Assembly (NCBI GenBank): GCA_965222075.1
Contig: OZ244937.1
Location: 1,952,001 to 2,016,000, forward strand
Reading direction: 5' to 3'
Length of the DNA stretch: 64,000 nucleotides
Source: Candidatus Latescibacterota bacterium
GTDB taxonomy: Bacteria; Latescibacterota; UBA2968; GCA-2709665
The notes under the pieces were generated by a model. The model worked only from the letters and a program-made list of their open reading frames with translations, was not told the DNA's origin and searched no databases. The translations under genes were made by a program, and so were the position numbers. Below are positions 3,792-34,307 of this stretch, one piece after another (position 1 is the stretch's first letter; every line of letters starts with the position of its first letter).

Positions 3792-3804
3792 ATAAGCCCC
3801 CGCT

Positions 3805-5847: not shown

Positions 5848-5934
5848 TCAGATGTCACCCATCTTTTGAGCCGAAGCGAAACCAATATCTCCCGCGCCTC
5901 CCGTGACCAACGCCACCTTTGTTGCAGTTGCCAT
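5848..5934 (-). pseudogene. Truncated N-terminus of a short-chain dehydrogenase/reductase
   Basis: GGAGG RBS followed by MATATKVALVTGGAGDIGFASAQKMGDI*, i.e. a Rossmann TGGxxxIG motif that stops after 28 aa. Confidence 0.6.
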
Positions 5935-5998
5935 TTTGGACCTCCATTCGGCATGAAATCAATCAATGATAGACTTTATGGGCCGCTAGCTCCATTCC

Positions 5999-6973: not shown

Positions 6974-7187
6974 AGGAGAACCTCCACTTTATATTGACAA
7001 GCACACGGTAGCTTCTTAGCTTAAGGACAATAAGGAAATTTACCAATAGTCACTGTTATTTTCAAGAATGATGACGGGGCACCACTTACGGTTGACCTGA
7101 ACGGATCGTCGGTGGAAGGCGAGATGGAGGTCACGGTTCCGTCTTCGGGACTCGTGGTACGGCGGACGGATGGCCGTGGTCGTTGAT

Positions 7188-7718
7188 TTACGGGGCATCT
7201 CCCTTTGTGATGGGGTAGTTCGCCCAGAACCAGGCGTTCCAGCCCTCGTAAAACGCCTGGGTTCGGGTATACCCCAAATCTTCGATCATCAGTCTGACAA
7301 AGAAAAAACTGTTCCGGCAGCTTCTGCCGCCGCAGTAGGCAATGATCCAGGTGTCTTTGGGCAGGTCGCCCAGCACATGCCGTATTCTGAGTTCGAATGA
7401 GAGAACCGGAATGCTCAGAGCGCCCGGAATGTGCCCGGCGGCATAGGCGTCGGGAGAACGGGTATCGATAAAGACGGCGTCTTTGCGATCGAATGCCCGT
7501 TTTGCCTCGTCTAAGGTAACGCGCATGCCCTCCACGTGCAGGTTCCATTCGATCCGTCCCGACAGAGGGATAGCATCGGGCGTTCGAAGCGGAATGCCGG
7601 CATCCGAAAAGGCATTGTAGGCAAACCCTGCTCCGGAGCCGATCAGGAGGACGGCGACGGCCTTTAAAATCAGGCGGCCCACGCCTGTATCCACTCTTTC
7701 CGGTCTGTCTGTCTCCAT
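7188..7718 (-). CDS. Membrane-anchored rhodanese-like domain protein
   Basis: N-terminal TM, IDTRSPDAYAAGHIPGA, YCGGRSC, EGWNAW. Confidence 0.85.
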   Translation of the reverse strand: METDRPERVDTGVGRLILKAVAVLLIGSGAGFAYNAFSDAGIPLRTPDAIPLSGRIEWNLHVEGMRVTLDEAKRAFDRKDAVFIDTRSPDAYAAGHIPGALSIPVLSFELRIRHVLGDLPKDTWIIAYCGGRSCRNSFFFVRLMIEDLGYTRTQAFYEGWNAWFWANYPITKGDAP

Positions 7719-7863
7719 CGCTCTTCACCACCTCCCTGGCAAAAAAAGCTTTTTATGGTACCGAGAACGTATAATATGGCTTAGCGTCGGTTTTCGCTTG
7801 GTTCGCTCCCGCCGGATTGCCAAATCCACGCCGAGCATCCCGACCCCAGCCCCCAATCCCTCT

Positions 7864-7892
7864 TTGACATTTCGCCTTTCATGTGCTATTTT
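7864..7892 (+). promoter_or_regulatory. Sigma70-like promoter
   Basis: TTGACA-17 nt-TATTTT with extended TG, about 40 nt upstream of ATG 7934. Confidence 0.45.
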
Positions 7893-7933
7893 GCACCTTC
7901 CCCTGTACCTCTTTCCAACCAGGAGCCATCACA

Positions 7934-10354: not shown

Positions 10355-10376
10355 GGGGCGCACGGCCGTGCGCCCC
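10355..10376. repeat. REP-like perfect palindrome between convergent genes
   Basis: GGGGCGCACGGCCGTGCGCCCC, resembling the core of GTAG-family REPs; may act as a bidirectional terminator. Confidence 0.65.
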
Positions 10377-10405: not shown

Positions 10406-11740
10406 TCAGTAAATCGGCAGATAGTGGTCAACCTCCCACTGGCTCACACTCTGGTGATACTGCCGCCACTCCTCGCGCTTGCACGCGATGTAGTAGTCCC
10501 CATAGACTTCCCCCAGCGCGCCCTTGACCACCTCGTCCTGCTCTAAGTAGTCGAGGGCCTCTCTGAGGGTCGAGGGCAGAAAACCGATGCCCCGCCGGTG
10601 CAGCTCCTCTTCAGGAACCTCGTAGAGGTTATCGTCGTTGCGCTCTCCCGGATCGATCTTGTTCTCGATCCCGTCCAGCCCGGCGGCAAGCATCGCCGAG
10701 CAGGCCAGGTAGGGGTTTGCCGAGCCGTCCACCGAACGGTTCTCAATACGTCCCGGCCCGGGAATGCGGATCATCTGCGTCCGGTTGGACGCGCCGTAGG
10801 TCACATACACCGGCGCCCACGAAGCCCCGGAGCGGGGCGCGCCCCGGACCAGCCGCTTGTAACTGTTGACGATCGGCGCCGCCACGGCGACCAGCGCCTT
10901 GGCATGTTTGAGGAGACCGCCGATAAACCAGTAGGCCTGCTCGGACAGGCCCATCTCATCCCCCTCGTCTAAAAACAGATTCGTCCTGTTATCTTCGTCC
11001 CACAGGCTCATGTGATAGTGCGCGCCGCTGCCCGTCAGGTGTGCAAAAGGCTTGGGCATAAAGGTCGCCAGCAGCCCGTACTGTTCGGCATTCACCTTAA
11101 CCATCCACCTGAAAAAGGTATGCCGGTCCGCCGTCGTCAGCGCGTTCGAGTAGTGCCAATTGATCTCGAACTGGCAGTTGGCGTCTTCGTGGTCGTTCGC
11201 ATAGGGGTCCCAGCCCAGTTCCTGCATGTATTTGATCAGCGTCGTCATCACATCCAAATTCCGGTGCAGCGTTACCAGGTCGTAGCAGGGCTTTTCCAGG
11301 ATATCAAGCGGGTCGAACGGCGCATACTGCCCGCTCTCATCCTGTTTGAGCAGCATGAACTCGGCTTCGACACCCACATTGAAGAAATACCCGCTCTCCC
11401 CGGCCTTCTCCAGCTGCCGCTGCAAAATCGTGCGCGGGCAGTAGTCCCACGGCTTATCTTCAACGTGGATATTACCCGCCACCCACGCCGTGTTCTTGCG
11501 CCACGGCAGAACCGTAAGCGAACCAAAATCGGGGAGATTCGCCATATCCGGATCGTGCGGCCCCTGCCCCATGTTGCCCGCTGCGAAACCTGCAAACCCC
11601 GCCCCCTCCGCTGCCATATCGTCCAGGTGCGTCACCGGCACCACCTTGGCCTTTGGCATCCCGTTCATCTCCACGAACGAGCAGAGGATAAATTCGATCC
11701 CTTTCTCGTTAACAAGCTCCTTAACCTGATCCAGCGTCAT
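10406..11740 (-). CDS. gmaS: Gamma-glutamylmethylamide synthetase (GlnT-type glutamine synthetase family)
   Basis: PKAKVVP..EGAGFAGFA, NDHEDANCQFEIN, TFMPKPF, SGASWAP, NRTQMIRIP; lies within the N-methylglutamate cluster. Confidence 0.85.
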   Translation of the reverse strand: MTLDQVKELVNEKGIEFILCSFVEMNGMPKAKVVPVTHLDDMAAEGAGFAGFAAGNMGQGPHDPDMANLPDFGSLTVLPWRKNTAWVAGNIHVEDKPWDYCPRTILQRQLEKAGESGYFFNVGVEAEFMLLKQDESGQYAPFDPLDILEKPCYDLVTLHRNLDVMTTLIKYMQELGWDPYANDHEDANCQFEINWHYSNALTTADRHTFFRWMVKVNAEQYGLLATFMPKPFAHLTGSGAHYHMSLWDEDNRTNLFLDEGDEMGLSEQAYWFIGGLLKHAKALVAVAAPIVNSYKRLVRGAPRSGASWAPVYVTYGASNRTQMIRIPGPGRIENRSVDGSANPYLACSAMLAAGLDGIENKIDPGERNDDNLYEVPEEELHRRGIGFLPSTLREALDYLEQDEVVKGALGEVYGDYYIACKREEWRQYHQSVSQWEVDHYLPIY

Positions 11741-11770
11741 AATCGACTCCCCTCCCTCTAAAATAAAAGG

Positions 11771-12001
11771 TTAGAGATTTTTCTGGTTGTTCTGAATCGT
11801 CTGAATAAGAGTGTCGTCGTGATCCAGGTTTTCCATCTCTTCCCTGTAGCTCGAACATTCAAACCTCATCTGCCAGACCGTATACACAACCCAGAAAACA
11901 AAACAGATCACGAACAGCAGGCCCTCTGTCCCCACAAAGGGATATATAGGCCCCATGTCTACCGGATTCCCTCCCCAGCTCTCAACAAGACCTGTCCTCA
12001 T
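11771..12001 (-). CDS. Small single-TM hypothetical protein
   Basis: AGGAGG RBS; 76 aa with GPIYPFVGTEGLL followed by a TM segment; co-oriented in the operon. Confidence 0.7.
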   Translation of the reverse strand: MRTGLVESWGGNPVDMGPIYPFVGTEGLLFVICFVFWVVYTVWQMRFECSSYREEMENLDHDDTLIQTIQNNQKNL

Positions 12002-12049
12002 CCTTCACCTCCTTGAATGAATAAAGCCCCATCAATCCCAAATCCGCAA

Positions 12050-13735
12050 TCAAAAGAGTCCCACCGTCTGTCCCTTCTCGTCAAAATCGATCGACTCCGC
12101 AGAAGGCACCCTGGGAAGGCCGGGCATGGTCATAATATCGCCTGCCAGCACCACCACGAACCCGGCGCCTGCGGAAACCCGGACATCACGGACGGGCAGG
12201 TCGAAATTTCTCGGCCTGCCCTTCAACCCCGGATCTGTGGACAGAGAATACTGGGTCTTTGCCATACAGATCGGCAGATCGCCATACCCTTCTCTCTCCA
12301 ACCGTCGGAACCTGGCCCTCAGGCTCTTGTCGCCCATAATATCGTTCGCCCCATAAATCTCCTGAGCGATCGTTCGGACCTTATCCCAGAGCCTGCACTT
12401 ATTCGGATACAGAAACCTGAAATCGCTCCTGGTCGTCTCGGCAACCTTCACCACCGTCCCTGCCAGCGCCTCTGCGCCTTCCCCGCCCCTCGCCCAGTGG
12501 TCGGCCTGCACGACCTCCACCCCCAGGTGGTCGCACTTATCCCGAACCAGCGCCACCTCCTCCGGCGTATCCGTCGAAAACGTATTGATCGCCACAACCC
12601 CCGGCAGGCCGAAGAGACGGATATTCTCGATATGCTTCTTGAGGTTCTCAATCCCCCTGTCCAGCGCCGCCATGTTGGGCCGCGTGAGTTCCTTTAACTC
12701 GACCCCGCCGTGGGATTTCAGCGCCCGCACCGTCGCAACCAGAACCACAACATCGGGACGAAGACCCGCCTGCCGGCACTTGATATTCAAAAACTTCTCC
12801 GCGCCCAGGTCTGCGCCGAACCCGGCCTCGGTAACCGTATACTCGGACAGCCTCATCGCCAGTTTAGTCGCCATCACCGAATTGCACCCGTGAGCGATAT
12901 TGGCAAACGGACCGCCGTGTACGATGGCCGGGTTGTTCTCCAGTGTCTGCACCAGGTTGGGCATGAGCGCATTCCGCAGCAACACCGCCATTGCACCGTG
13001 AACGTTGAGATACGCGGCCGTAATGGCCTTCCTCGAACGCGTATACGCCACGATGATTTTGCCCAGCCGGTCTCGCAGCTCCTCCAGCGACTCCGACAGA
13101 CATAGTATCGCCATCACCTCCGAAGCCACCGTAATGTCAAATCCGGACTCGCGGGGGAACGAATTGCCCGGACCGCCCAGGCCGATGACGATGTTCCGAA
13201 GCGCCCGGTCGTTCATATCCACAGCGCGTTTCCACACAACACGCCTCGGATCGATATCCAGCCGGTTTCCCTGGTGGATGTGATTGTCCAGCACGGCCGC
13301 CAGCAGGTTGTGCGCCGTGCCAATCGCGTGCATATCCCCCGTAAAGTGGAGGTTGACATCCTCCATCGGCACAACCTGGGCATACCCCCCGCCCGCCGCC
13401 CCTCCTTTCATCCCGAAACAGGGCCCCAGCGAAGGCTCGCGTAAGCAAACGGTGGCCTGCTTTCCGATCCGGTTCAATCCATCGCCCAGCCCCACCGCCG
13501 TCGTCGTCTTCCCCTCTCCCGAAGGCGTCGGATTAATCGAAGAAACCAGCACCAGCTTGCCAGCAGGCGCATTCTCCAGGCTGCGGTAGTAATCCACCGA
13601 AACCTTCGCCTTCAACTTCCCGTAAGGCTCGATATGCGCCTGATCGATCCCCAGCTTCTGAGCCACCTCCTCAATCGGAAGCAGTGCTGCCCGCCGCGCA
13701 ATCTCGATGTCCGGCGGCATCTCCCGCTTGCCCAT
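12050..13735 (-). CDS. fhs: Formate--tetrahydrofolate ligase
   Basis: [43 protein letters not shown]. Confidence 0.97.
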
Positions 13736-13745
13736 AGCACCCCTT

Positions 13746-15161
13746 TCACCCTTCGTCTTGCGACACGCCTCCATCCCGCGCCGCTTCGAGCTCCACGCGA
13801 ATGATCTCATTCGCATCGTCCGATTCTGTCTCTATCCCCCGGTGGTCCATTCCCGCCAGTTCAACCTGCTGGGGAATTCTGAGCAGATTCAACCTTTTCA
13901 GAAGAAGGCCGAGGATGTAACAGGGCAGGAAACCGAGCACAACGAACATAATGATCGCACCGATGGTCTGCCCCCAGGGCGTAATGACCGCATAGGCGGA
14001 ATTGGGTGAACTTGGATACCCCCACAGCACAAACCCTGCAACAATAACCCCGATCACGCCAGCATATCCGTGAACGGCAACGGCGCCGACCGCATCGTCA
14101 ATTTTGAACTTCCGCTCCACCCAGTAGTGCAGCTTGTACATACACAACACCCCGAAGCCGCCGATAAGATGGGCCTGCAGCGGATGGTACAGGTCGTTTC
14201 CCGCCGAAGCGGTAATAATGCCCGCCAGTCCCCCCGAAAACGTCCAGTAGGGATCGCCCTTGGACACAAAATATCCCGCGATCAACCCTCCGGCCAGCGA
14301 CATCAAAAAGTTAAACGTAATCGCGCTCAACGTCGTGGGCGTCAGATAGATCGTCGTGGCCGAGAAAAACGTCCTGGCATCGGAAGCATCGACATCCCAG
14401 ATCGGCACATTGCAGGCGGCGTAAAATCCCCAGAACCCGGTATAGATCAGAAACAGCCCGATGACGACCAGCCAGGTGTTGTGCGGAGGGAAATTCCGGG
14501 GCGTCCCATCCGGGCGAAACCTCCCGATTCTCGGGCCCAGATGGTAGAGAATTGCCAGTGCCGATCCCCCGCTGATGGCGTGGATCACCCCCGACGCATA
14601 GGCGTCGTGGTAGCCCAGCACCTGGACCATCCATCCATCCGCCGACCATCCCCACGCAGCGTCGATCACCCAGGTGATTGACCCCACCAGAACGGCGAAT
14701 AGCCAGAAGGCGCTCGACCGGATGCGTTCGATCACCGCCCCCGAAAGAATCGAACCCGCCGTCCAGGAAAAGATCAGAAACGCCGCCCAGAACACGCCGT
14801 TGATACGCGCCCATGCCGCCGTGTCCGCCGCCGACAGCCCCCCACCGTGGGGCTTCCCCCCCATGTGCGTTCCCATCAACTCGTTCCAGGGCTCCGCCCA
14901 GGCGGCGGATTTTAAGCCTCCTGTGATGCCCGGCCCGTTCTGAAAGGCGAAATAGATCCACCATCCGAAAAAGTAAAACGTCACCGTCACCAGCGGAATA
15001 AGCATCGCATTCTTCATCAGGGTGTGCATCATATTCTTGCGGCGAGAAACGCCCACTTCGTACAGGCAGAACCCCACGTGAATGAGGAACATCAGAACAA
15101 TGCACACCCAATAGTAGAACTCTGTAAAAATAACCGACAATGCACTCAGTTCATTCTCCAT
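13746..15161 (-). CDS. amt: Divergent ammonium/methylammonium transporter (Amt family)
   Basis: Amt fold motifs: [38 protein letters not shown] before ATG 15161. Confidence 0.88.
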
Positions 15162-15198
15162 AGGTCTATCTCCCTCCCGGTCCTGCGTTGGCCTGCGG

Positions 15199-16539
15199 TT
15201 AGCTCCACGGAAACGGGCTGTTTGACACCGGGTGCAGCCTCCCCTCGGCGTAACGCGAAAAGCGAAAGGGCGCCAGCATGGCGCTTTCATGTCCCATAAT
15301 CTCTTCCGCGACCAGCTCTCCCACGCCAATCATCTTGTACCCATGGTTGGAATCGGCAATGATGTAGCAGTTCTCGCAGAACACGTCGAACACCGGGAAG
15401 CTGTCCGGCGTAAACGCCCCCAGCCCCCCTGAAGGATCATCGCTTTTATAATATTTGAACTTGCCCTCAAAACGCTTCTGGCAGAAGGCCAGCGCCGAAC
15501 ACCACATGCGGGCGAAATCCTCGCCCGCCACAAAATCGGGCGACTTGGGGCCGTAAGGGTCCACTTTCACCTCGTCCGGATCGGTCTCAACCCTGTAGGG
15601 CATACCGCCCCCCTGGACGCCGCCGAAGCAGAAATCCGGCTTGTAGTAAATGCCCCACAGCGCCTCGGTGATCAGGGAGCCGTCCACGTCCGAATACAGC
15701 GGCACATCGGTGTCTACGTGGATCACGGGGGGCATCTTTCCGTCGTTGGTCTTCTGGAAGTCGGGATCAACGCCCAGCGTGCCCTCCTGCAAACACCAGT
15801 AGGTCCACATCCGGATATCGTGGTGCATCCTGCCGTCGCGGCCCTTGATACTGACCGTCCCGGGCAGGTCCAGCATCTCCCAGACCGACTTGATCCAGGG
15901 CCCCGCGCCCACCACCACGTAATCCGTCTGAATCACGTTCCGATCAGTCACCACGCCCGAGATCGCCTTCCCCGAGAATTGAAATCCGGTGACCCGGACG
16001 CCGGAGAGAATCTGCACACCCTCGTTTTGCGCTTTGGCAGCCAGGCCTTCCATTGAGGCCTTGTTGTTGGCATACCCTCCCTTCTTCTCGTGTAGGACCG
16101 ACGTAATTCCCCTGGCCTGCCAGTCGTGAAAAATGCCTTTCATATACGCCTTGCAGTCGGCTTCTCCCTCGATAAATTCGGAGGGGTAGCCGATCTCTTT
16201 CTGCTGTGCGGCAATGCTGGCCACGTCCGTGTGCATCACCTCGGGGCTGATCTGCATGTAGCCCACCGGATGGTAACTGTATACCCCGGGGTCGCTTTCC
16301 CATACCTGAACGCTGTGGGCCATCAGCTCGCGCATCGCCGGCTGGTAATAGTTGTTGCGCACCACCCCGCATGCAATCCCCGACGCCCCGGCGGCGATCC
16401 CCGTCTTGTCCACAATGAGAACGTCCGAGCCGCTTCCCCTCCCACTCGCCTTCAACGCAAGCGCGAGGTGGTAACCGGTACTCAGCCCGTGAACGCCGGC
16501 GCCGATAATCACATATCTGGAAGCCTCAGGCACCCCCAT
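15199..16539 (-). CDS. FAD-dependent oxidoreductase (DAO / sarcosine oxidase beta-like)
   Basis: IIGAGVHG, GASGIACGVVRNNY, FTPDSFP, SNHGYK. Confidence 0.85.
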   Translation of the reverse strand: MGVPEASRYVIIGAGVHGLSTGYHLALALKASGRGSGSDVLIVDKTGIAAGASGIACGVVRNNYYQPAMRELMAHSVQVWESDPGVYSYHPVGYMQISPEVMHTDVASIAAQQKEIGYPSEFIEGEADCKAYMKGIFHDWQARGITSVLHEKKGGYANNKASMEGLAAKAQNEGVQILSGVRVTGFQFSGKAISGVVTDRNVIQTDYVVVGAGPWIKSVWEMLDLPGTVSIKGRDGRMHHDIRMWTYWCLQEGTLGVDPDFQKTNDGKMPPVIHVDTDVPLYSDVDGSLITEALWGIYYKPDFCFGGVQGGGMPYRVETDPDEVKVDPYGPKSPDFVAGEDFARMWCSALAFCQKRFEGKFKYYKSDDPSGGLGAFTPDSFPVFDVFCENCYIIADSNHGYKMIGVGELVAEEIMGHESAMLAPFRFSRYAEGRLHPVSNSPFPWS

Positions 16540-17020
16540 CGGTCGTACTCCCAACAAGCTGCGTGTAATTTCCGCCATAAAAAATCAGCGGACGGCCCTC
16601 ATTCGCATTCCCCGCCACAATCTCGCCAACAAAAATATCGTGGTCACCGCCGGGAAAAATATCGGTCAAATAACAGTCCACAAACGCCAGCCCCTCCGCC
16701 AGGATCGGAGCGCCCGTCTCCGCCTCGGTGAGCTTCAGGTTGGAGAAATCTTTCGGGCCGGGGGCCGCGAACTGCCGGGAAACCGCCTCCTGTTCGTCTG
16801 TCAGCACATTCATCGCGAAGCACTTGCCCTGCGTTAGCGATCCGTGCATCTGGTTGCGCTTATCCACCGCCACCAGAACCAGCGGCGGGTCCAGCGACAG
16901 CGACGCAACCGCATTCGCCGTCATTCCGCAGAGTTGGCCCTCGTGACGCGTGGTCACCACCGTCACCCCCGTTGCAAAACAGCCCATAATCCGCCGCTGT
17001 TCCATCGCATCGAACGCCAT
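16526..17020 (-). CDS. Flavin reductase (HpaC/DIM6/NTAB-like)
   Basis: FATGVTVVTT, GMTANAVASLSLDPPLVLV, GGDHDIFVG. True start is ATG 17020; the ORF-track extension overlaps tdm. Confidence 0.92.
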   Translation of the reverse strand: MAFDAMEQRRIMGCFATGVTVVTTRHEGQLCGMTANAVASLSLDPPLVLVAVDKRNQMHGSLTQGKCFAMNVLTDEQEAVSRQFAAPGPKDFSNLKLTEAETGAPILAEGLAFVDCYLTDIFPGGDHDIFVGEIVAGNANEGRPLIFYGGNYTQLVGSTTDGGA

Positions 17021-17033
17021 CCCCGTTCCCTTT

Positions 17034-19370
17034 TTAAGAACGCGGCCGCGCCTTCTCCGGATCGTAGAACGGGAAGCGCACCACCATCGCCGGAATCCGT
17101 TTCTGGTACCCGTCCAGCTTGCCCACCTCCACCTCTGTGCCCATATCCGAGTACTCCACGACCATCCGGCAAAGCGCAATATTCTTGCGCAAAATCGGAG
17201 ACCGTATGCCGCTGGTGACCACGCCCACCCGGCTGCGCCCCACGTGAACGCTGTCGCCGTGGACCGCCGGCTCGTTGCCCTCCAACTCAAGCCCGACGAG
17301 CACCCGCTGGGGGTGTTCCCTGTGCCGAACAAGCGCCTCCTTACCGATAAAGTCGTCCGCCTTCTCAAGGGCAACCGTAAAGCCAATACCGGCCTCAAAC
17401 GGGTTGACCTGGTCCTCAAATTCGTAACCGGCAAAGATAAGTCCCGATTCGATGCGCAACATATCGAGCGCATCCAGCCCCAACGGCGTCAACCGGTGGG
17501 GTTGGCCCGCCTTCCAGACCGCGTCCCACACCGCAGGGGCATCCCCCGGATGGCACCAGACCTCGTAGCCCAGTTCTCCGGTGTAGCCCGTCCGCGAAAC
17601 CAAAATCGAAACGCCGTTCCCATCGCCGATGCGGCCGATGGTGAACCGAAACCAGTTCAGTTCCTCAAGCATCGGCTGCAGCGGCGGCGTCCACACCACC
17701 TCCCGCAGGATCTCCCGGCTCCTGGGCCCCTGCACCGAAAGGTTGTGGAGCTGGTCGGTAGACGTCCGGACCCAGACACGCAACCCCAGCTTTCCGGCCT
17801 GTTCACGCAGCCAGACCCCGCCGTAGTCATCGCCGCCGATCCAGCGGAAGTTGCTGTCGCCCAGCCGGAACAGCGTCCCGTCATCCAGCATACCGCCCGT
17901 CTCGTAACACATTGCCGAGTACGTAACCTGCCCCACCGACAGCCTGCGCACGTCGCGGGTCAGCGTCCGCTGCAGCAGTTCCTCGGCATCCGGACCGAGC
18001 ACCTCAAACTTGCGCAGGGGCGAGAGGTCCATCACCACCGCACGCTCCCGGCAGGCGTAATACTCCTCAATCGCGCCATGCCCGGTAAAGCAGGCCGGCA
18101 GCCAGAATCCCCGGTATTCCGTGAAATTCCGTGTCAGCGCAGACGTCCGGGGGTGAAACGCGGTTTTACGCGTCATCTGAGGGTCGGCATCCGGAGTCAT
18201 CCTGTGGGCAATCCCCTTCGAAAAACGATGCACCGCCGGATAGACCCGAACGTGAATATCCGTCGGATTCCAGCCGTTGGCCGGGTCGATATCGTCCGGA
18301 CAGGCCGAAGACAGGCAGACCAGGTCCGTCACCGCCCGCAGCAACACATAATCGCCCGGGCGCGACCAGGGCTCATCCATCAACAGCGCGTTGTTGCTGT
18401 CGATGCCCGTATTGTAGAAAAAATTAATCGCGGGCCAACCCCTGCGGGGAGCAATCGTATAAGGATGCAGCGCCGCATTAAAATTGTCCGAACAGTTGAT
18501 GTGGCCGGGGTACCCCATATCCTCGTAGTACCTGGCGGTACAGGCCAAAGCAAACGTATCGTGGCGCCCCACCGTATCGCGGATGACCTCCACTAAGGGC
18601 TGCATGTCCTGGTCATAAAACCTGGAAAACAAACCGGGCCCGGGATAGGCCGCGCCCATCAGCGTCCGCGTCGTGGTCGCGTCCAGCCCGCGTTCAACGC
18701 CCCGCTGCAGCTGCCGGCTGTCAAACGCCAGGAAATCCGAACACTGCCGCCCGTCAACATCGATCACCTGAATGTATTCGCCGGCCTTCACTTCATAAGC
18801 CATCGCCGTCGCCCGATCTACGCGCAGATCCAGGCGCAGATCGCCCGGGGGGGGCGGCAGCGGCGATTCGATCGCCTCCTCCAAACTGGCCCGTTTGACA
18901 ACAACGCGCAGCTCGGTGGGCGGATTCTGTTCTTCTACCCGCATAGGCCCGCCGGGCGCAGCCACAATGCAGATTGCCCCCCGCTTGACGGTAAACGCCT
19001 CCTCGTCCCCCGGCCGTGCCCCCTCCCCGAAAAGTCGCACCGCCCGAGCCTCCGTCGCGTCAATCCCCCGCTGCCGCAAAGCGGCCACAGCGGCCAGCGC
19101 ATTACCCTTCCCGTTTGTCAGGCCAGGCGAGAAGCTCACCAGCCTGCTGTCCGCACGGGCGCCCAGAGCCTCGAGATCTTCGTCCCCCTCCCAACTGAAA
19201 ACCGCAAGCTCGCACGGCTGGCCCCCTTCAACGTCGATGATGTTCATCCGGTCGCCCGCTGTAAGCGCCAGAACAATCGACCCACCGCCGCACACCCGGT
19301 ATCGCTCCACCCCGGGCTCCGGACGGAGCAGGCCCGCCTCGATCAAACGCGGCCTGCCTGTAACAGCCAT
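17034..19370 (-). CDS. tdm: Trimethylamine N-oxide demethylase (DUF1989 + GcvT-like domains)
   Basis: 778 aa with GRQCSDF, GRHDTFALAC..GHINC, SACPDDIDPANGWNP and C-terminal SRTGYTGELGYE..LRIESG. Confidence 0.88.
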   Translation of the reverse strand: MAVTGRPRLIEAGLLRPEPGVERYRVCGGGSIVLALTAGDRMNIIDVEGGQPCELAVFSWEGDEDLEALGARADSRLVSFSPGLTNGKGNALAAVAALRQRGIDATEARAVRLFGEGARPGDEEAFTVKRGAICIVAAPGGPMRVEEQNPPTELRVVVKRASLEEAIESPLPPPPGDLRLDLRVDRATAMAYEVKAGEYIQVIDVDGRQCSDFLAFDSRQLQRGVERGLDATTTRTLMGAAYPGPGLFSRFYDQDMQPLVEVIRDTVGRHDTFALACTARYYEDMGYPGHINCSDNFNAALHPYTIAPRRGWPAINFFYNTGIDSNNALLMDEPWSRPGDYVLLRAVTDLVCLSSACPDDIDPANGWNPTDIHVRVYPAVHRFSKGIAHRMTPDADPQMTRKTAFHPRTSALTRNFTEYRGFWLPACFTGHGAIEEYYACRERAVVMDLSPLRKFEVLGPDAEELLQRTLTRDVRRLSVGQVTYSAMCYETGGMLDDGTLFRLGDSNFRWIGGDDYGGVWLREQAGKLGLRVWVRTSTDQLHNLSVQGPRSREILREVVWTPPLQPMLEELNWFRFTIGRIGDGNGVSILVSRTGYTGELGYEVWCHPGDAPAVWDAVWKAGQPHRLTPLGLDALDMLRIESGLIFAGYEFEDQVNPFEAGIGFTVALEKADDFIGKEALVRHREHPQRVLVGLELEGNEPAVHGDSVHVGRSRVGVVTSGIRSPILRKNIALCRMVVEYSDMGTEVEVGKLDGYQKRIPAMVVRFPFYDPEKARPRS

Positions 19371-20764
19371 CAGTCCCCCTCTGCCTCTGCAAGCAGCTTC
19401 TCGGCCAGCGCCTTCTTCGCCTCCCTGTCCAGCTTTTTAATCTCGTTGTGGAGCATGCGCTCGTTCACCGACTGGTTCCAGTAATCCAGCGAGTCGAACC
19501 CGAGCAGCACGGCCTTTCCCACGAACTGCCGCAGCACCTCGTTGGTGGGCCCCATCACCCACCCCGCCTTGCCGTCGCGCAGGTACCGCTCGATCCCCAG
19601 CTCCGGCTTGTAGCCGGTGCCGCCACAGGCGTGCAGCATTTTGTCCGACACATTCGCCACATTCTTGGCCGCGGCAAACTTCACCTGCCACATCCAGTGC
19701 AGCACCTCCGCCCTGGGCAGGTTGGACAGATCCTCGTGGATCGACCAGTCACAGTTGTTCGTCAACTCGTCCATCGCCCTGGCCATCTGAAAAACGAAAG
19801 CCCGGCACGTATTCGTATCCATAACCGCCTCACCCACATAATCCTGGATGGTCGGATAGTCCGCAACACGCATGCCCACGTCCGCGTGCCGCTTGGCCGT
19901 GGTGTGGCGCTTCGCAATATCGATCAACCCCAGCGAGATGCCGTTCCAGCAGGCGGACGAGCACAGCAGGAAGAACGGATCCACCGTCTCGTCGTTCGAA
20001 TTCGCCCCATCCCCCACCGGCCCCACCAGCCGCTCTTCGGGGACCGTCACGTTGTCCACCTCGATCGCCCCCGACTGGTTGCCCCGCAGCCCCAGCCCGT
20101 CCCACTTCGACGGCTCCGCCTTGACCTCGTCGGCCATAACCAGAAAACAGGAAAGATTGGAGTAATCGCCCCCAAAGTCCGGACTCGTCGTCTGGACAAT
20201 GTACCAATCGGCAAAACCGCCCGACGTCGTCCACGACGCCTTCTTGCGCACCTTCCAGCCGCCGTCGACCGCCTCGGCCCCCGACGAAATCGGATACCAG
20301 AAGTGCGAGCCCGTCTCCGGATCCGAATAAGACAACGTCCCGACGAGGACATCCCTGTCGAGACGTTTCATCAACTCCTGAATCGTCGGATTGTCGTGGC
20401 TTCGGAACATCGCGGCGGCAACGGCCCCGATGTGCATCGTGTAGCACATCGCGGTACTGGCGCAACCGTACCGGGCGATCGTCTCCACGACCATCGCGGT
20501 ACACGTATGGTTCTCCCCCAGCCCGCCCCACGCCTCAGGCACGTTCAACCCCAGCAGACCCAGCGAGGCCAGCGCCTCGAAATTCTCGCGGGGAAACAGG
20601 CGCTTCTCATCGCTTTCCACCGCATTCTCCCGCAGCGTGGTCTGACAAAGCGCAATCAGCCTGCGCTGAAGCGCCTTCTGCTCCGGTGTCAGCACCCACT
20701 GCGGGTCCCAGTCGTAGCCCAGCCCCCAGAATTCTTCGTCCCCCCACAGTTTTGTATCGCTCAT
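19370..20764 (-). CDS. Acyl-CoA dehydrogenase-fold flavoprotein (possible group D monooxygenase)
   Basis: VPEAWGGLG, SDPETGS, GLRGNQSG, GGTGY..IERYLRDGKA; VMGPTNE replaces the canonical IYEGTxE; overlaps the tdm start. Confidence 0.85.
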   Translation of the reverse strand: MSDTKLWGDEEFWGLGYDWDPQWVLTPEQKALQRRLIALCQTTLRENAVESDEKRLFPRENFEALASLGLLGLNVPEAWGGLGENHTCTAMVVETIARYGCASTAMCYTMHIGAVAAAMFRSHDNPTIQELMKRLDRDVLVGTLSYSDPETGSHFWYPISSGAEAVDGGWKVRKKASWTTSGGFADWYIVQTTSPDFGGDYSNLSCFLVMADEVKAEPSKWDGLGLRGNQSGAIEVDNVTVPEERLVGPVGDGANSNDETVDPFFLLCSSACWNGISLGLIDIAKRHTTAKRHADVGMRVADYPTIQDYVGEAVMDTNTCRAFVFQMARAMDELTNNCDWSIHEDLSNLPRAEVLHWMWQVKFAAAKNVANVSDKMLHACGGTGYKPELGIERYLRDGKAGWVMGPTNEVLRQFVGKAVLLGFDSLDYWNQSVNERMLHNEIKKLDREAKKALAEKLLAEAEGD

Positions 20765-20812
20765 ATCGTCCTCATCCGGTTACACTTGAACATTGGGAAA
20801 AATACCCAATCT

Positions 20813-29931: not shown

Positions 29932-31170
29932 CTAATGTCCTACCGACGCCGCGCCCTTTTCTCCGACCAGACGGCCTTTTTCAAAACGGGACAAACGGAA
30001 GGACGCAATCAGGTCCGGAGTGCGTCCGGTGGCGATGCATTCGGCCAGCATTTTGCCGCAAATCGGAGAAGCCTTAAAACCGTACGTCCCCCACCCCACA
30101 TCCACCAGAAACCCCTCCACGGGCGTAAACCCCATAATCGGACTGTAGTCGGGGGTCATGTCACACAGGCCGGCCCACTGGCGCAGGATACGGACCTGGC
30201 TCAGGGACGGAAAGAGCTCAAGCACGTGCCCGGCGATGCCTTCCAGAAACGAGAGGGAAGAATCCATGGAATAGGAGGCAAACGGATCCACGCTGGCGCC
30301 CATCACCAGTTCGCCCCGGTCGGACTGGCTGATGTAGACGTGCAGGCTGCCGGAAACAACGACCACGTCTAAGAAGGGCTTGAGCGGCTCGGTCACGCAG
30401 GCCTGCAGGGGGAACGTGGTCAGGGGCAGCTTAACCCCGGCCATGTCCGCAATCGTGGACCCCCATCCGGCGGTGGCGTTGAGCACCGTCCCGGTTTTGA
30501 TACGGCCGCGATTCGTCTCCACCCCGCTCACCTTCCCGTTCCGCACCTCCATCCCGGTCACTTCCGTCTGCTGGTGAATGTGCACGCCGCGCACGTCTGC
30601 ATGGTGCGCATAGCCCCACACGACCGCATCGTGCCGGATGATGCCCCCGGGCGGGTGGTAGAGCGCAGCCAGGATGGGATAACGGGGATGGTCGCTGAGG
30701 TCAAGACAGGGACAGAGGCGGGCAATCTCGTCGGGCCGGATCAGATACGACGCGACCCCCTCAAGCCGGTTCACCTCGGCCCGGCGGCGCATCGTATTCA
30801 CCGCGCCGTCGGTATGGGCCAGCGTCAGGTGCCCCCGCTGGGAAAACATCACGTTGAAATCCAGCTCGGTGGCCATCTGCTCGTAGAGCTTCACGCTCTC
30901 ATCGTAAAACCGGACACCTTCGGGGGTGAGGTAATTGCTGCGGATAATGGCGGTATTGCGCCCGCTGCCGCCCGAGCCGATATAGCGCTTTTCCAGCACC
31001 GCCACATCGGTGATGCCGTATTCGCAGGCCAGATAGTAGGCACAGGCCAGCCCGTGCGCTCCCCCGCCGATAATCACCGCATCATAGCGGTCTTTCAGGC
31101 TGTGAGACCGCCACATCCTGGGCAGCCGACCGTTGCCGTTGAGGACCTGACGGATCAGTTTGATAGACAT
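29932..31170 (-). CDS. mgdA: Sarcosine oxidase beta-like / N-methylglutamate dehydrogenase subunit A
   Basis: IIGGGAHG, GSGRNTAIIRSNY, RHDAVVWGYA, GWGTYGFKA, GAASVGH. Confidence 0.9.
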   Translation of the reverse strand: MSIKLIRQVLNGNGRLPRMWRSHSLKDRYDAVIIGGGAHGLACAYYLACEYGITDVAVLEKRYIGSGGSGRNTAIIRSNYLTPEGVRFYDESVKLYEQMATELDFNVMFSQRGHLTLAHTDGAVNTMRRRAEVNRLEGVASYLIRPDEIARLCPCLDLSDHPRYPILAALYHPPGGIIRHDAVVWGYAHHADVRGVHIHQQTEVTGMEVRNGKVSGVETNRGRIKTGTVLNATAGWGSTIADMAGVKLPLTTFPLQACVTEPLKPFLDVVVVSGSLHVYISQSDRGELVMGASVDPFASYSMDSSLSFLEGIAGHVLELFPSLSQVRILRQWAGLCDMTPDYSPIMGFTPVEGFLVDVGWGTYGFKASPICGKMLAECIATGRTPDLIASFRLSRFEKGRLVGEKGAASVGH

Positions 31171-31233
31171 AATAATCCGGACGCTTGGGGAATTTCAGCC
31201 GGGCAGGCAGCAAAAAAACGCTTACATAATTGC

Positions 31234-31256
31234 GCTTGATCGGCCAAATGTCAAGC
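31234..31256 (-). promoter_or_regulatory. Putative -35/operator motif upstream of mgdA
   Basis: Minus strand GCTTGACATTTGGCCGATCAAGC: TTGACA, with GCTTGA...TCAAGC inverted ends; 17/19 match to 34372-34390. Confidence 0.45.
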
Positions 31257-31290
31257 CAAAAATCGTAGGATTACGAACGCATCGTGGCTT

Positions 31291-32649
31291 CTAATGTCTC
31301 CCTTCCGCCCAGCCCGGCCCCCCACCAAACACCCGGTTCGTTCCCGCCAGCGGAATCCCGCACGTCATGGACGCCTCTGACGTCAATGCGCGCAGATCTT
31401 CAGGATCCAGGTCGTGCACGTCGGCCTTTCCGCATGCCCGGGCGAGAATCTGGACCTCCGACGTCATCGCCTGTAGCAGATTGGCGACCCGCTCCGCCGC
31501 CTCGTCGATATCCAGACGCGCCATCAGGTCGGGGTCCTGCGTGGTAATGCCAACAGGGCAACGCCCGGTGTGGCAGTGGTGGCAGTAATGCGGCTCGGTG
31601 TCCAGCTTTTGGTAATCCGAAACGTAAATCGGCTTGTTGCAGTTAAGTGCAATCAGGGCCGCCGTCCCAATATAAACGGCATCCGCCCCCAGCGCCATAG
31701 CCTTCGCCGCATCCACCCCGTTTCGGATGCCCCCCGCAATAATAAGCTGCACCTCGCCGAACACCCCGATATCTTCCAGCGCCGCCCGCGCCTCGCACAC
31801 CGCGGCCAGCGTGGGAATGCCCGTGTGTTCCTGAGAAATCTCGGCCGACGCCCCTGTGCCGCCCTCCATGCCGTCTACCACAACAACATCTGCGCCCGCC
31901 TTTGCCGCCAGCCTCACATCGTCAAACACCCGGGTCGCCCCCATCTTCACAAAAATCGGCGCCTGCCAGTCGGTCGCCTCCCGCAGTTCCTCGATCTTGA
32001 TAATCATATCATCGGGACCCAGAAAATCGGGGTGCCGCGCCGGGCTGCGCTGGTCCACCCCGATTGGCAAATCGCGCTGTTCGGCAATCGTGTCCAGCAC
32101 CTTTGAGCCCAGCAGCAGCCCGCCCGTCCCCGGCTTTGCGCCCTGTCCGATCGTCAGCTCGATCCCGTCCGCCACCCGCAGGTCGTGGACATCGATGCCG
32201 TATCGAGACGGCAGGACCTCGTAGATCAGCACCCTGCTGTGCTCACGTTCCGCCTTCAGCATCCCTCCGTCCCCGGTCGTATTCGACGACCCCACGATAT
32301 TCGCCCCCTTTGCCAGGGCGACTTTGGCATTGTAGGAAAGCGCCCCCCAACTCATGCCCGTAATCATAATCGGCGTGTCGAGTGCAATCGGCTTTTCGGC
32401 AAAGCGCGTGCCCAGCACCGTCCTGGCCGAGCAGCGCTCCCGGTAGCCCTCCAGCGGGATGCGCGTCAACGTACAGGGGATAAAGGTCAGATCGTCAAAC
32501 GTTGCCCACCGCCGCTCCCGGAGCGTCCCGAACCCCCGGATGCGATAGCGCCCCAGGTCCGCCTTCACCTGGATATCTTCAATCACATCCGGCGTAAACG
32601 TCCCGCTGGCTTTGAGGGGATGGTAGCCGCTTGGGGTGTCTTCAGACAT
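31291..32649 (-). CDS. mgsC: N-methylglutamate synthase subunit C-like, copy 2
   Basis: GMSWGALS, GDGG, GQGAKPGTGGLL, SPARHPD, CHHCHTGRCPVGI. Confidence 0.85.
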   Translation of the reverse strand: MSEDTPSGYHPLKASGTFTPDVIEDIQVKADLGRYRIRGFGTLRERRWATFDDLTFIPCTLTRIPLEGYRERCSARTVLGTRFAEKPIALDTPIMITGMSWGALSYNAKVALAKGANIVGSSNTTGDGGMLKAEREHSRVLIYEVLPSRYGIDVHDLRVADGIELTIGQGAKPGTGGLLLGSKVLDTIAEQRDLPIGVDQRSPARHPDFLGPDDMIIKIEELREATDWQAPIFVKMGATRVFDDVRLAAKAGADVVVVDGMEGGTGASAEISQEHTGIPTLAAVCEARAALEDIGVFGEVQLIIAGGIRNGVDAAKAMALGADAVYIGTAALIALNCNKPIYVSDYQKLDTEPHYCHHCHTGRCPVGITTQDPDLMARLDIDEAAERVANLLQAMTSEVQILARACGKADVHDLDPEDLRALTSEASMTCGIPLAGTNRVFGGGPGWAEGRH

Positions 32650-32706
32650 AAAGTGATCCTGTCTTTTGAAGGCTCGTACCTGGTGAAGCGGGATCACGAA
32701 CGACGC

Positions 32707-33411
32707 TCAAAGCGCCTCCCGCCACACCGCTCGCTCGTCCTTGTCAAAATTCCACAGCTTGCGTCCGGAAACGACCTTTTTGAAGCTCCGCCCGTCCATT
32801 TGCCCGGCCTTCTCGGGAAGGTGTTGAGACAGCGTCTTTTCAAGAAGAGCCAGATCTTTTTCTGTCGGTTCTTCAACAACCGCGTCGTTTCCCAGCTCGG
32901 CGATATTGCCGCCCACAAAGCAGACGGTTTCGTACATCGAATCGCCCAATGCCGTGCCCGTATCCCCGCAGACAATCAGCGTCCCTTTCTGTCCCATAAA
33001 CCCCGCCATATACCCGCAGTTGCCCCCCACAACAACCAGCCCGCCCTTCATCGCAACCCCCAGCCGGGCCGCTGCATGGCCGTGAATAACGATGGTGCCG
33101 CCCCGGATCGACGCCCCTGTACCGTTCCCCGTGCTGCCGTGGACCACCACCCTACCGTCCATCATGGACTCGGCCAGCCCCCACCCGGCGCTCCCCTCGA
33201 CCTCCACCGTGGCGCCGGCGATCATACCCGCGCAGTAATAGCCAACGCTGCCGTCGAACCTGATGCGCACGGACTCCAGGATCGCCACGCCCAGATTGTG
33301 CCTTGCACCGGGGCCTTTGACAAGAATATCCGCCTCCCCCTGTGCAATAAGCCCCTTGATTTTCCGGTTGATCTCGCGGATCGTTTTGCCCTCACAGACT
33401 ATCTCTGCCAT
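32707..33411 (-). CDS. mgsB: N-methylglutamate synthase subunit B-like, copy 2
   Basis: ARHNLGVA, GSVGYYCAGM, LGDSMYE, GRKLWNFD. Confidence 0.85.
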   Translation of the reverse strand: MAEIVCEGKTIREINRKIKGLIAQGEADILVKGPGARHNLGVAILESVRIRFDGSVGYYCAGMIAGATVEVEGSAGWGLAESMMDGRVVVHGSTGNGTGASIRGGTIVIHGHAAARLGVAMKGGLVVVGGNCGYMAGFMGQKGTLIVCGDTGTALGDSMYETVCFVGGNIAELGNDAVVEEPTEKDLALLEKTLSQHLPEKAGQMDGRSFKKVVSGRKLWNFDKDERAVWREAL

Positions 33412-34307
33412 ATCCTCACGTCCTTTGCCTGTGCCTCGTCAACCTTGTAGGCGCCCTCAAAGGCAGCGCGTATCGCGATCTCTTCCGTAGCAACGGCAAC
33501 AAATGTATCGGTTTCGGTAAACAGCAGCGGTTTGAGGGCAAACGGGTCTCTGGCAAAACCGATCGCATCGGGCGTTGCCGCAAGATAGCTGAACGAACCG
33601 TCCAGATCGACCAGCGAGGCCTCCAGCGCCTCCTTCAATCCCATCTCCTGAGACAAACGATCGGCGAGGTACACACCGATGATCTCGGAGTCGTTCTCGG
33701 TGTAAAACCGGACGCCCCGCTGTTCGTACCGCCGACGCATCTTGTGATAGTTGGTGATATGCCCGTTGTGCACAATCGCCAGATCGGGATAGCCGTGCGC
33801 CCAGAAGGGCTGAGAGTGGCTCAAATCGATGCGGGACTCGGTAGAAAGCCGCGTGTGTCCGATCCCGTGGGTGCCCGTGAACGCGGAGACCCCGTAGGTC
33901 GCGTCCAGGTTCTGGGGCGACCCCACCTGCTTGACGATTTCCAGCCGGTGCCCCATGCTTACCACCTCGATGCCTTCGCCTGCGGACTCAACAAGACGCT
34001 CCAGTTGCCGGGCATCCTCCTGATCCTCCACCACGAGGCGCATGTACTCTGCGGTCGTAGAAGCATCACGCACCGAACCCGACGTCTGAACCCGCTGCGA
34101 GACCTGCGCCGCCCTTTCGTCAAAGGCGCCGTTTTCACCCAGGCTGATCCTGAGCACCAGGTCTCCGTTGCGCCCCCCCCCGTAAAGCGCCACACCTGCC
34201 GAATCGGGGCCCCGGCAGTCCAGGGCGTTCAGCATCTTGAGAATGGTCTGCCCCACCGCCGCGGATTCGTTTCCGGTCCTGTCCAGAAAACCTGAGATAC
34301 CGCACAT
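33399..34307 (-). CDS. mgsA: N-methylglutamate synthase subunit A-like, copy 2
   Basis: MCGISG at 34307 (GAGGAG RBS), RGPDSAG, IGHTRLSTES, VHNGHITN. Confidence 0.85.
   Translation of the reverse strand: MCGISGFLDRTGNESAAVGQTILKMLNALDCRGPDSAGVALYGGGRNGDLVLRISLGENGAFDERAAQVSQRVQTSGSVRDASTTAEYMRLVVEDQEDARQLERLVESAGEGIEVVSMGHRLEIVKQVGSPQNLDATYGVSAFTGTHGIGHTRLSTESRIDLSHSQPFWAHGYPDLAIVHNGHITNYHKMRRRYEQRGVRFYTENDSEIIGVYLADRLSQEMGLKEALEASLVDLDGSFSYLAATPDAIGFARDPFALKPLLFTETDTFVAVATEEIAIRAAFEGAYKVDEAQAKDVRIWQR

Follow-up and report, generated by a model that had tools for sequence, protein, structure and literature searches.

How does a bacterium that forms dimethylamine (DMA) from trimethylamine N-oxide (TMAO) go on to consume it when the known DMA monooxygenase, Dmm, is missing? 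The question is raised by the genome of a Candidatus Latescibacterota bacterium (assembly GCA_965222075.1, contig OZ244937.1), of which we analysed a stretch of 64,000 nucleotides, positions 1,952,001 to 2,016,000, referred to here as the window. An array of 19 tightly packed genes, all on the minus strand, occupies window positions 10355-34307. Canonical use of trimethylamine (TMA) proceeds through Tmm, Tdm, DmmDABC, GmaS, MgsABC and MgdABCD, and its DMA step has been termed a genetic or metabolic bottleneck, with dmmDABC missing in many bacteria that have tmm, tdm and gmaS (PMC5520151, accessible part of the paper). The array carries tdm and the full canonical GmaS/MgsABC/MgdABCD set of the N-methylglutamate pathway known from Methylocella, Methyloversatilis and Ruegeria. 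An earlier note on this DNA had listed two ligases of the glutamine synthetase (GS) family, two mgsABC sets, mgdABCD, tdm, an FAD oxidoreductase, fhs and amt, all of which lie on the minus strand where it placed them; it had missed an ACAD-fold gene (19370-20764), a flavin reductase gene (16526-17020) and a gene for a 129-aa protein (20813-21202). Our overall reading, to which we assign a probability of about 0.6, is that TMA would be oxidized to TMAO by the ACAD-fold protein acting as an oxygenase, that Tdm would convert TMAO to DMA, and that DMA would enter the N-methylglutamate pathway through a second set of paralogues, the GS2 unit.

The genome is closed (one contig, 5,360,005 bp, completeness 97.59), and the absence of dmmDABC that had been proposed for the window extends to all of it. 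Neither PF11927 (the HODM/DmmC family) nor PF22290 (the DmmA family) has a match anywhere in the closed genome. Queries for tblastn were taken from L091, a textbook dmmD-dmmA-dmmB-dmmC-tmm cluster with confirmed domains and with tdm adjoining on the opposite strand; its DmmA, DmmB, DmmC and Tmm gave zero matches in the whole genome at E<=1e-3, and its DmmD matched only GcvT-domain paralogues (e.g. tdm and soxA). As positive controls, the Dmm searches succeeded in L091, and the PF11927 search found matches in 120 of the 401 genomes of an evenly drawn sample of Hyphomicrobiales, the order around Taklimakanibacter (hereafter the order sample). PF00743 (the FMO family) had no match in the closed genome, with a control positive in 7 of 14 genomes. 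Searches of the genome for MtbB and MttB were negative, and its sole Oxidored_FMN protein is OYE-like, with no trimethylamine dehydrogenase among the 60 best solved matches of that protein. The closed genome contains no set of PF11927, PF22290/PF22289 and DmmB reductase genes side by side, which defines DmmDABC membership, and no PF00743 protein similar to a cluster-encoded Tmm. The earlier note had allowed that dmm or DMA dehydrogenase genes elsewhere in the genome might cover the DMA step, and this possibility fell away with the absence of dmm, of TMADH- and DMADH-like genes and of MtbB and MttB.

The product of tdm (17034-19370) scored 1256 bits against NF053776 (cut-off 1100 bits) and has the DUF1989 and GCV_T architecture, with GCV_T_C, of the TMAO demethylase family, to which it therefore belongs. 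In an array where tdm yields DMA and where gmaS, mgs and mgd use monomethylamine (MMA) or N-methylglutamate, the GS2 unit and the ACAD/reductase pair are the only components that lack a role.

The GS2 unit and the dimethylamine step

The GS2 unit consists of six genes: DAO459 (15199-16578), encoding a DAO-family FAD oxidoreductase with PF01266 and a proposed N,N-dimethylglutamate demethylating oxidase; GS2 (24514-25995), encoding a divergent GS-family amine ligase and our candidate DMA-glutamate ligase; the trio mgsA2 (23565-24500), mgsB2 (22717-23577) and mgsC2 (21297-22688); and the gene for the conserved 129-aa protein ('hyp143'). An alternative order has DAO459 after the 129-aa gene. The FAD oxidoreductase that the earlier note regarded as an extra is thus present, as a member of this unit. 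MgsA2 is an amidotransferase subunit with GATase_6/7 domains and the start MCGIAG, MgsB2 is a GXGXG subunit (PF01493, 48.4 bits), and MgsC2, whose start was set by comparison with a second Latescibacterota locus (L002), is an FMN-domain subunit (PF01645, 309 bits).

A scan of species-representative genomes with GS2 returned 80 loci, to which the window proteins were then compared by tblastn. Sixty of these loci, with at least 2 kb upstream and at least 6 kb downstream of GS2, form the basis for counts of neighbouring genes. Near GS2 we found mgsA2 and mgsB2 in 60/60 loci each, the 129-aa gene in 49/60, mgsC2 in 48/60 and DAO459 in 40/60. An amt gene (59-84% identical) lies within 10 kb in 18/60, and tdm (9/60), the ACAD gene (7/60) and canonical gmaS (7/60) are found nearby in fewer loci. 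According to record titles, carriers of the unit belong to Latescibacterota, Gemmatimonadota, Acidobacteriota, Gammaproteobacteria, many Alphaproteobacteria and, in one metagenome-assembled genome (MAG), Verrucomicrobiota; the alphaproteobacterial carriers include Methyloceanibacter, Aestuariivirga, Taklimakanibacter, Dongiaceae and Xanthobacteraceae. The earlier note suggested an undescribed route in an unexpected lineage; the module is not special to that lineage, being found in at least five phyla and, among the retrieved loci, most commonly in Alphaproteobacteria. GS2 orthologues are 68-97% identical across phyla, and cyanobacterial proteins 76-77% identical to GS2 exist.

In MAGs of the sponge type the unit is split: GS2, mgsA2 and mgsB2 follow mgs1 and mgd at one site, mgsC2 and the 129-aa gene stand with ACAD, tdm, the reductase, amt and fhs at a second (followed by gmaS in the four loci that extend far enough), and DAO459 lies at a third. 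Every part is retained over two or three sites, and this retention despite scattering argues for one functional unit. MgsC2 is conserved at a mean column identity of 85% among 15 sequences. For the 129-aa protein, 65 columns are invariant among 18 orthologues, and its gene remains beside mgsC2 where the unit is split. The 129-aa protein matched no Pfam or NCBIfam family, and a Foldseek search of the PDB with its AlphaFold model (predicted local distance difference test, pLDDT, 76) gave nothing at E<=0.001. Its matches in the ESM Atlas were only unnamed or phage clusters (0.89-0.92), which are uninformative, and a complex prediction with MgsC2 scored 0.01, a value that says nothing on binding either way. 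A Cys-rich stretch (C370, C373 and C378; context CYHCHTGRCPVG) is invariant among the orthologues of MgsC2 and is a possible site for a metal or an iron-sulfur cluster.

The best solved relatives of DAO459 are beta-type chains of sarcosine oxidase and dimethylglycine oxidase, and the DAO model matches only its first ~240 residues. An 804-aa DMGDH-like protein with DAO, FAO_M and GCV_T domains takes exactly the position of DAO459 in L028. In L051 and L067, which have no DAO459 nearby, DMGDH-like proteins of 806-808 aa are encoded 1.8-2 kb away from GS2. These relatives and replacements suggest that the substrate of the oxidase is an N-methylated amino acid, which favours a route through N,N-dimethylglutamate. 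DAO459 shares the DAO FAD domain with dimethylglycine oxidase/dehydrogenase and with sarcosine oxidase beta subunits; unlike dimethylglycine oxidase/dehydrogenase it has no tetrahydrofolate-binding domain, so that free aldehyde would be released.

The two ligases of the array differ clearly. GS1, the product of gmaS (10406-11740), is a bona fide GmaS, with 607 bits on TIGR03105 (cut-off 469.6), 431 bits to RhGmaS 7CQL and 416 bits to the glutamate-methylamine ligase 9QUR. GS2 scored ~295 bits on TIGR03105 and falls outside GmaS membership; it is about as distant from a solved GmaS (184 bits to 7CQL) as from an archaeal GS (193 bits). Its clade has an insert of ~23 residues after an SLWRGG motif, which is missing in GS1 and in the housekeeping GlnA. 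In RhGmaS, Trp300 stands in place of the GS flap Glu (PMC7948447, accessible part). A Trp is found at this position in GS1, in GS2 and in 7/7 aligned GS2 orthologues, and the GlnA of the genome has Glu. At the position of GS Asp50' (Ala48' in RhGmaS), MAFFT aligns GS2 Val and GS1 Ala with GlnA Asp; HMMER instead aligns a nearby GS2 Asp. Judged from its sequence, GS2 is probably an amine ligase of the GmaS-like type, although it is not classed as GmaS. For canonical GmaS, the accessible part of the same paper gives a Km of 16 mM for DMA versus 27 µM for MMA, with kcat values of the same order (2.6 versus 4.2 s-1; PMC7948447, Table 1). With kcat similar and the Km for DMA high, glutamylation of DMA would be feasible but a dedicated enzyme would be needed.

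Some Hyphomicrobiales encode members of a sister clade at 55-58% identity to GS2, as second copies in G185, G092 and G144 and as only copies in G258, G334 and G409; G258 carries tdm and has neither GS2 proper nor Dmm. This clade may represent yet another, third version of the unit.

Whether the unit accompanies tdm or dmm, a comparison proposed in the earlier note, was examined in two sets of genomes. The multi-phylum set comprises 50 GS2-carrying genomes (from 50 of the 80 loci). Tdm exceeded its cut-off in 33/50, with frameshifted or partial pieces in 3 more, and canonical GmaS did so in 47/50. PF11927 had matches in 6/50 and genuine Dmm was found in 0/50: five of the six matches are 25-29% identical to DmmC and stand without DmmA, DmmB or DmmD neighbours, and the sixth has no DmmC match. 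In the order sample Tdm (E<=1e-150) was found in 95/401 genomes and GS2 (E<=1e-120) in 48/401, of which 45 were at >=67% identity. A Dmm-type class of 50 genomes was defined by a PF11927 score of >=224 bits together with a query start at position 4 or later; in the GS2 genomes of this sample, all 10 PF11927 matches examined after coverage filtering proved to be distant paralogues. Such paralogues, 25-31% identical to DmmC and without DmmA/DmmB/DmmD neighbours (L081-L084, L086 and L092-L102), are common in GS2 genomes, so that PF11927 by itself over-calls Dmm.

Tdm was present in 36/45 GS2 genomes versus 59/356 genomes without GS2 (odds ratio ~20). The 95 Tdm carriers divide into 36 with GS2 only, 47 with a Dmm-type gene only, none with both and 12 with neither. 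Across genomes the module thus accompanies tdm and excludes Dmm. On a 90-row maximum-likelihood tree of Tdm, built from tblastn segments and covering 80 of the 95 carriers together with the window and 9 additional loci, the GS2/Dmm label requires at least seven changes, and the exclusion is therefore not the product of one old split. We conclude that the GS2 unit probably stands in for Dmm. The idea that the second module handles DMA where Dmm is missing gains partial support from the absence of Dmm from the genome and from this distribution, and the chemistry proposed with it is hypothetical.

The ACAD-fold protein and its flavin reductase

The second component in want of a role is the ACAD-fold protein, with three ACAD domains, which we propose as the oxygenase of a two-component TMA monooxygenase; the putative partner is a 164-aa flavin reductase (PF01613, 136.9 bits; start at 17020). 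The combination of an ACAD fold with a dedicated flavin reductase gene is that of group D two-component flavin monooxygenases. The three ACAD domains and the PF01613 neighbour are shared with this group, whose members include DszC, HsaA, nitrososynthases and the Acinetobacter oxygenases of dimethyl sulfide (DMS) and dimethyl sulfoxide (DMSO), and the protein has a Gly at the position of the ACAD catalytic Glu. Unlike those enzymes, the protein lies far under every named NCBIfam equivalog cut-off (the best being the Rv1679 family, 218 versus 600 bits), with weak matches to HsaA, SfnB, DszC, DnmZ and the HPA hydroxylase oxygenase. The Gly in question, Gly405, is invariant and aligns with the FEGT/YEGT Glu of VLCAD and cyclohexanecarboxyl-CoA dehydrogenase, a residue that serves as the catalytic base of ACADs. 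An AlphaFold model of the protein, made with 17 sequences, reached a pLDDT of only 57.7. For ACAD-fold two-component enzymes, heteroatom oxygenation is documented for DMS and DMSO (PMC13352529, accessible part); our literature searches yielded no group D enzyme that acts on TMA.

A reductase of 37-70% identity was found near the ACAD gene or tdm in 14 of the 17 ACAD loci of relatives that were scanned with the corrected reductase query, and was not seen in L116, L118 and L121. ACAD orthologues adjoin tdm in loci from Latescibacterota, Gemmatimonadota, Acidobacteriota and Alphaproteobacteria. The pair occupies the position that tmm has in canonical clusters (e.g. L091), and in four Dmm-type genomes (G152, G231, G401 and G378) it heads the series ACAD, reductase, tdm, dmmD, dmmA, dmmB, dmmC. 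Among the 50 GS2 genomes an ACAD orthologue (>=70% identity) is present in 18 and Tmm (>=63% identity) in 20, with no genome holding both, and each of the 36 Tdm carriers among them has exactly one of the two (ACAD in 16, Tmm in 20). From the order sample, 80 of the 95 Tdm carriers were examined, with the ACAD orthologue in 6, Tmm in 67, both in 2 and neither in 9. Pooling gave 113 tdm-positive genomes, three being common to both sets, with ACAD only in 20, Tmm only in 82, both in 2 and neither in 9. The pair accompanies tdm under either DMA system, and Tmm and ACAD are each found in combination with Dmm and with GS2. Cultured bacteria that have Tmm and GS2 and lack Dmm are Taklimakanibacter lacteus and T. 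albus (loci L043 and L061). This pattern suggests that the ACAD pair, on present sequence comparisons, probably stands in for Tmm. Like Tmm, a class B flavin-containing monooxygenase, it would act at the step from TMA to TMAO beside tdm; unlike Tmm, which is a single-component protein of the FMO fold (PF00743), it would divide the work between an ACAD-fold protein and a separate flavin reductase.

Gene lesions were seen in three genomes. G013 has an ACAD orthologue with an in-frame TAG (G013:C2:852715-854097) and no tdm was found in it, and tdm lies in two or three frame-shifted pieces in G044 (G044:C2:206079-208083) and G010 (G010:C12:198499-201619). These lesions reflect either gene decay or assembly error.

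The proposed pathway and its alternatives

In the pathway that we propose, the ACAD-fold protein would use reduced flavin from the adjacent reductase to N-oxygenate TMA to TMAO, replacing the FMO-type Tmm. Tdm, in keeping with its family membership, would split TMAO into DMA and a one-carbon (C1) unit passed to tetrahydrofolate. The six-gene GS2 unit would then act in place of DmmDABC, a function suggested by its distribution. GS2, with ATP, would join DMA to glutamate to give gamma-glutamyl-dimethylamide; MgsA2B2C2, with the 129-aa protein, would turn this into N,N-dimethylglutamate; and the DAO-type oxidase would strip one methyl group to leave N-methylglutamate. The known chemistry of Mgs enzymes underlies the second of these reactions. 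MgdABCD, again as expected from family membership, would convert N-methylglutamate to glutamate and methylene-tetrahydrofolate. GmaS and the first MgsABC would take free MMA, Fhs would act on the C1 pool, and methylated ammonium may be taken up through the divergent Amt. The chemistry suggested for the GS2 unit is, as we see it, the most economical that would use every part; the specific intermediates, gamma-glutamyl-dimethylamide and N,N-dimethylglutamate, are put forward tentatively and we regard them as on balance doubtful. That both replacements are real, with a glutamate-linked, ATP-dependent DMA route replacing Dmm in many members of at least five phyla and a two-component flavin enzyme of the ACAD fold as a second, non-homologous TMA monooxygenase, falls somewhat short of an even chance in our judgement.

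Comparison with known systems places the GS2 unit between the N-methylglutamate pathway and Dmm. With the former it shares domain types and their order (ligase, amidotransferase, GXGXG, FMN domain), the Ntn Cys of MgsA2 and the GmaS-type Trp of GS2. It differs from that pathway in its more distant ligase, in having a single-subunit DAO oxidase and the 129-aa protein rather than the four-subunit MgdABCD, and in a distribution that mirrors Dmm rather than GmaS alone. With DmmDABC, a haem-dependent oxidative N-demethylase, it would share the DMA-consuming step after Tdm, and the two are mutually exclusive in tdm-positive genomes. There is no homology between them: Dmm has a haem/PAS oxygenase, an FMN/2Fe-2S reductase and a GcvT subunit (domains of L091), whereas the GS2 unit would be ATP-dependent and glutamate-linked and would release no free MMA. 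In searches of open-access papers and bioRxiv preprints without supplements, we found neither a glutamate-linked DMA route nor dimethylated glutamyl intermediates in such a context, nor any ACAD-fold TMA monooxygenase. A literature search on Methyloceanibacter and the accessible part of PMC11264602 gave no DMA growth data for cultured carriers.

Several observations weigh against the pathway proposed here. Beyond family membership, each functional step in it is deduced rather than observed. The Dmm-type class is verified by DmmA/B/D neighbours in only six genomes (L087-L091 and L105). Very small Fisher p-values, for GS2 against Dmm and for ACAD against Tmm, ignore relatedness, and independent contrasts are few: among 10 GS2-differing pairs Dmm changed in the opposite direction in 3-5, in the same direction in 0 and was unchanged in the rest (sign test p 0.06-0.25), and ACAD versus Tmm gave only 5 pairs (p 0.06-1). 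The two genomes with both ACAD and Tmm and the nine with neither depart from a simple replacement. Some ACADs have the catalytic base elsewhere, so that Gly405 does not exclude a dehydrogenase, and Amt-type channels are known mainly as carriers of ammonium and methylammonium. Tdm also occurs where no DMA step follows, as in the 12 Tdm carriers with neither DMA system; the same has been reported for SAR11, where excretion of DMA is proposed (PMC5520151, accessible part). Conversely, the unit was found without detected tdm in 14/50 genomes of the multi-phylum set and 9/45 of the order sample, many of them MAGs, and may therefore accept another amine, or DMA freed from an amide. L002 (genome G001, Latescibacterota) has GS2, mgsA2B2C2 and the 129-aa gene, with a best match to DAO459 of 27% and with neither Tdm over its cut-off nor an ACAD orthologue.

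The occurrence of Tdm where no DMA step follows and of the unit without tdm, together with the make-up of the unit from gmaS, mgsABC and soxB paralogues and the Amt-type channel within 10 kb in 18/60 loci, fit an alternative in which the unit is a second route for MMA or another small primary amine (ethylamine or hydroxylamine), for instance a high-affinity or differently regulated paralogue, with DMA excreted. We consider this unlikely, as it leaves unexplained why genuine Dmm is found in 0/45 GS2 genomes of the order sample and in none of the multi-phylum set, and why canonical GmaS is retained beside the unit in 47/50 genomes; moreover, a cell that excreted DMA would gain no nitrogen from TMAO although tdm shares an array with MMA genes. 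Another alternative is that the unit breaks down an unrelated amine set free when amides or hydantoins are hydrolysed, its link to tdm arising from shared 'organic nitrogen' islands. It is suggested by L037, a tdm-negative alphaproteobacterial MAG. A Pfam scan of this locus (2584-8679 and 15287-19431) placed a GntR regulator, an amidase and a periplasmic binding protein of the ABC type to one side of the unit and hydantoinase A/B to the other, and L039 and L066 are alike in open reading frame layout. This reading sits poorly with the roughly 20-fold odds by which the unit is enriched in tdm-positive genomes, with its physical adjacency to tdm and ACAD in four phyla and with its exclusion of Dmm, and an amidase could itself release DMA, which makes the L037 context compatible with a DMA substrate; we therefore think it improbable.

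The missing DMA monooxygenase might instead be the ACAD-fold protein with its flavin reductase, given that the pair adjoins tdm and that two-component flavin monooxygenases oxidise small heteroatom compounds (PMC13352529, accessible part). This appears very improbable: 20 tdm-positive GS2 genomes have no ACAD orthologue and also no Dmm, a complete dmmDABC directly follows ACAD, reductase and tdm in the four genomes named above, and the pair anticorrelates with Tmm and not with Dmm. Least credible of all would be a split GS/GOGAT-type ammonium assimilation by GS2 and MgsA2B2C2 with the DAO protein as reductase. Its domain content does mirror GS and the three glutamate synthase domains, with an Amt gene nearby, but the flap Glu that is present in the housekeeping GlnA is missing in GS2 and its orthologues, and neither the association with tdm nor the exclusion of Dmm would be explained. 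Consumption of DMA by the GS2 unit is the reading that we prefer.

The array, its host and its wider meaning

In transcription order the array runs mgsA1, mgsB1, mgsC1, soxB, soxD, soxA, soxG, GS2, mgsA2, mgsB2, mgsC2, the 129-aa gene, the ACAD-fold gene, tdm, the flavin reductase gene, DAO459, amt, fhs and gmaS, the widest intergenic gap being the fhs/gmaS interval of ~310 bp. The canonical N-methylglutamate synthase is encoded by mgsA1 (33399-34307; class-II amidotransferase subunit with GATase_6/7 domains), mgsB1 (32707-33411; GXGXG subunit, PF01493 53.8 bits) and mgsC1 (31291-32697; glutamate-synthase FMN-domain subunit, PF01645 328 bits); the end coordinate of 34307 in the earlier note was correct, being the true MCGISG start of mgsA1. 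Both trios (31291-34307 and 21297-24500) have an amidotransferase with N-terminal Cys, a GXGXG protein and a glutamate-synthase FMN domain in MgsABC order, and both MgsA proteins begin Met-Cys-Gly, retaining the Cys nucleophile of Ntn (N-terminal nucleophile) amidotransferases; neither trio matched a curated Mgs model in NCBIfam. N-methylglutamate dehydrogenase is encoded as four subunits in one block (26017-31170) of the heterotetrameric sarcosine-oxidase type: mgdA (29932-31170; soxB-type beta subunit, TIGR01373 505 bits), mgdB (29632-29925; soxD-type delta subunit, a separate 97-aa open reading frame, PF04267 101.8 bits), mgdC (26709-29630; soxA-type alpha subunit with a tetrahydrofolate-binding GCV_T domain, TIGR01372 871 bits) and mgdD (26017-26712; soxG-type gamma subunit, PF04268 and TIGR01375). 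The soxA and soxB scores are slightly under the sarcosine-oxidase subfamily cut-offs.

The divergent Amt-family channel (13746-15161; PF00909 199.6 bits), a possible importer of methylated ammonium, is under every NCBIfam Amt cut-off, and fhs (12050-13735) encodes a formate-tetrahydrofolate ligase (NF010030, 886 bits, cut-off 652). Just 3' of gmaS lies a terminator-like GC-rich hairpin with a T-rich tail (10355-10376, minus strand; a 9-pair stem with 8 GC pairs) as the likely end of the array; promoter- and terminator-like sites in the region are no commoner than in shuffled controls, and no Rfam family reached its gathering score in the whole window. The array appears to be a single operon-like unit for the use of TMA or TMAO as a source of nitrogen and C1 units. 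A Latescibacterota MAG contig (L001) that is 97% identical has the identical gene order from mgsA1 to amt, up to the end of the compared stretch; as this order is kept and the parts recur jointly in other phyla, the cluster is not a chance juxtaposition. The flanking genes are unrelated to the array (rhamnulokinase, a UvrD-like helicase, GFO/IDH/MocA oxidoreductases and a CehA/McbA-like hydrolase). A 672-aa DUF6785/DUF6784 protein (3805-5823) lies just beyond the island, as does an 811-aa CehA/McbA-type metallohydrolase with a DUF3604 segment (7883-10318), neither having an apparent link to it.

The nearest named relatives of the genome are Candidatus Latescibacterota MAGs, with L001 97% identical in GS2, and further relatives at 85-89% identity include MAGs labelled Gemmatimonadota. 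DNA runs labelled as sponge metagenomes contain ~23-30% of the words sampled from the stretch, and we regard the genome as that of a sponge- or coral-associated Latescibacterota bacterium. Two sponge metatranscriptome runs of one study yielded RNA contigs (199-476 nt, 0-2 mismatches) that map to gmaS, DAO459, tdm, mgsC2, mgsB2, GS2 and soxA; they show presence in an RNA library and not transcription. Their cover is patchy (e.g. none at 19071-19737), and no weight is placed on the uncovered stretches.

Methylated amines are a sizeable nitrogen pool in marine and soil environments and are aerosol precursors. Symbionts of sponges and corals carry the GS2 unit as well, and their hosts probably supply methylated amines; TMA derived from carnitine has been proposed (10.1101/2022.10.21.513280, accessible part). 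Among the tdm carriers of the sampled order, the unit occurs almost as often as Dmm (36 versus 47 of 95). If our reading is correct, gene surveys confined to tmm and dmm would undercount the bacteria that consume TMA and DMA, the candidate ACAD-type oxidation of TMA being one activity that would escape tmm-based surveys, and a second DMA route would alter which organisms count as DMA sinks. GS2, the 129-aa gene and the ACAD gene would then serve as new markers for metagenomes, and enzymology would gain a glutamyl ligase for secondary amines and an N,N-dimethylglutamate demethylase. Familiar enzyme families appear to have been recruited to two undescribed pathway steps, and their spread is wide enough to be relevant when the turnover of methylated amines is surveyed.

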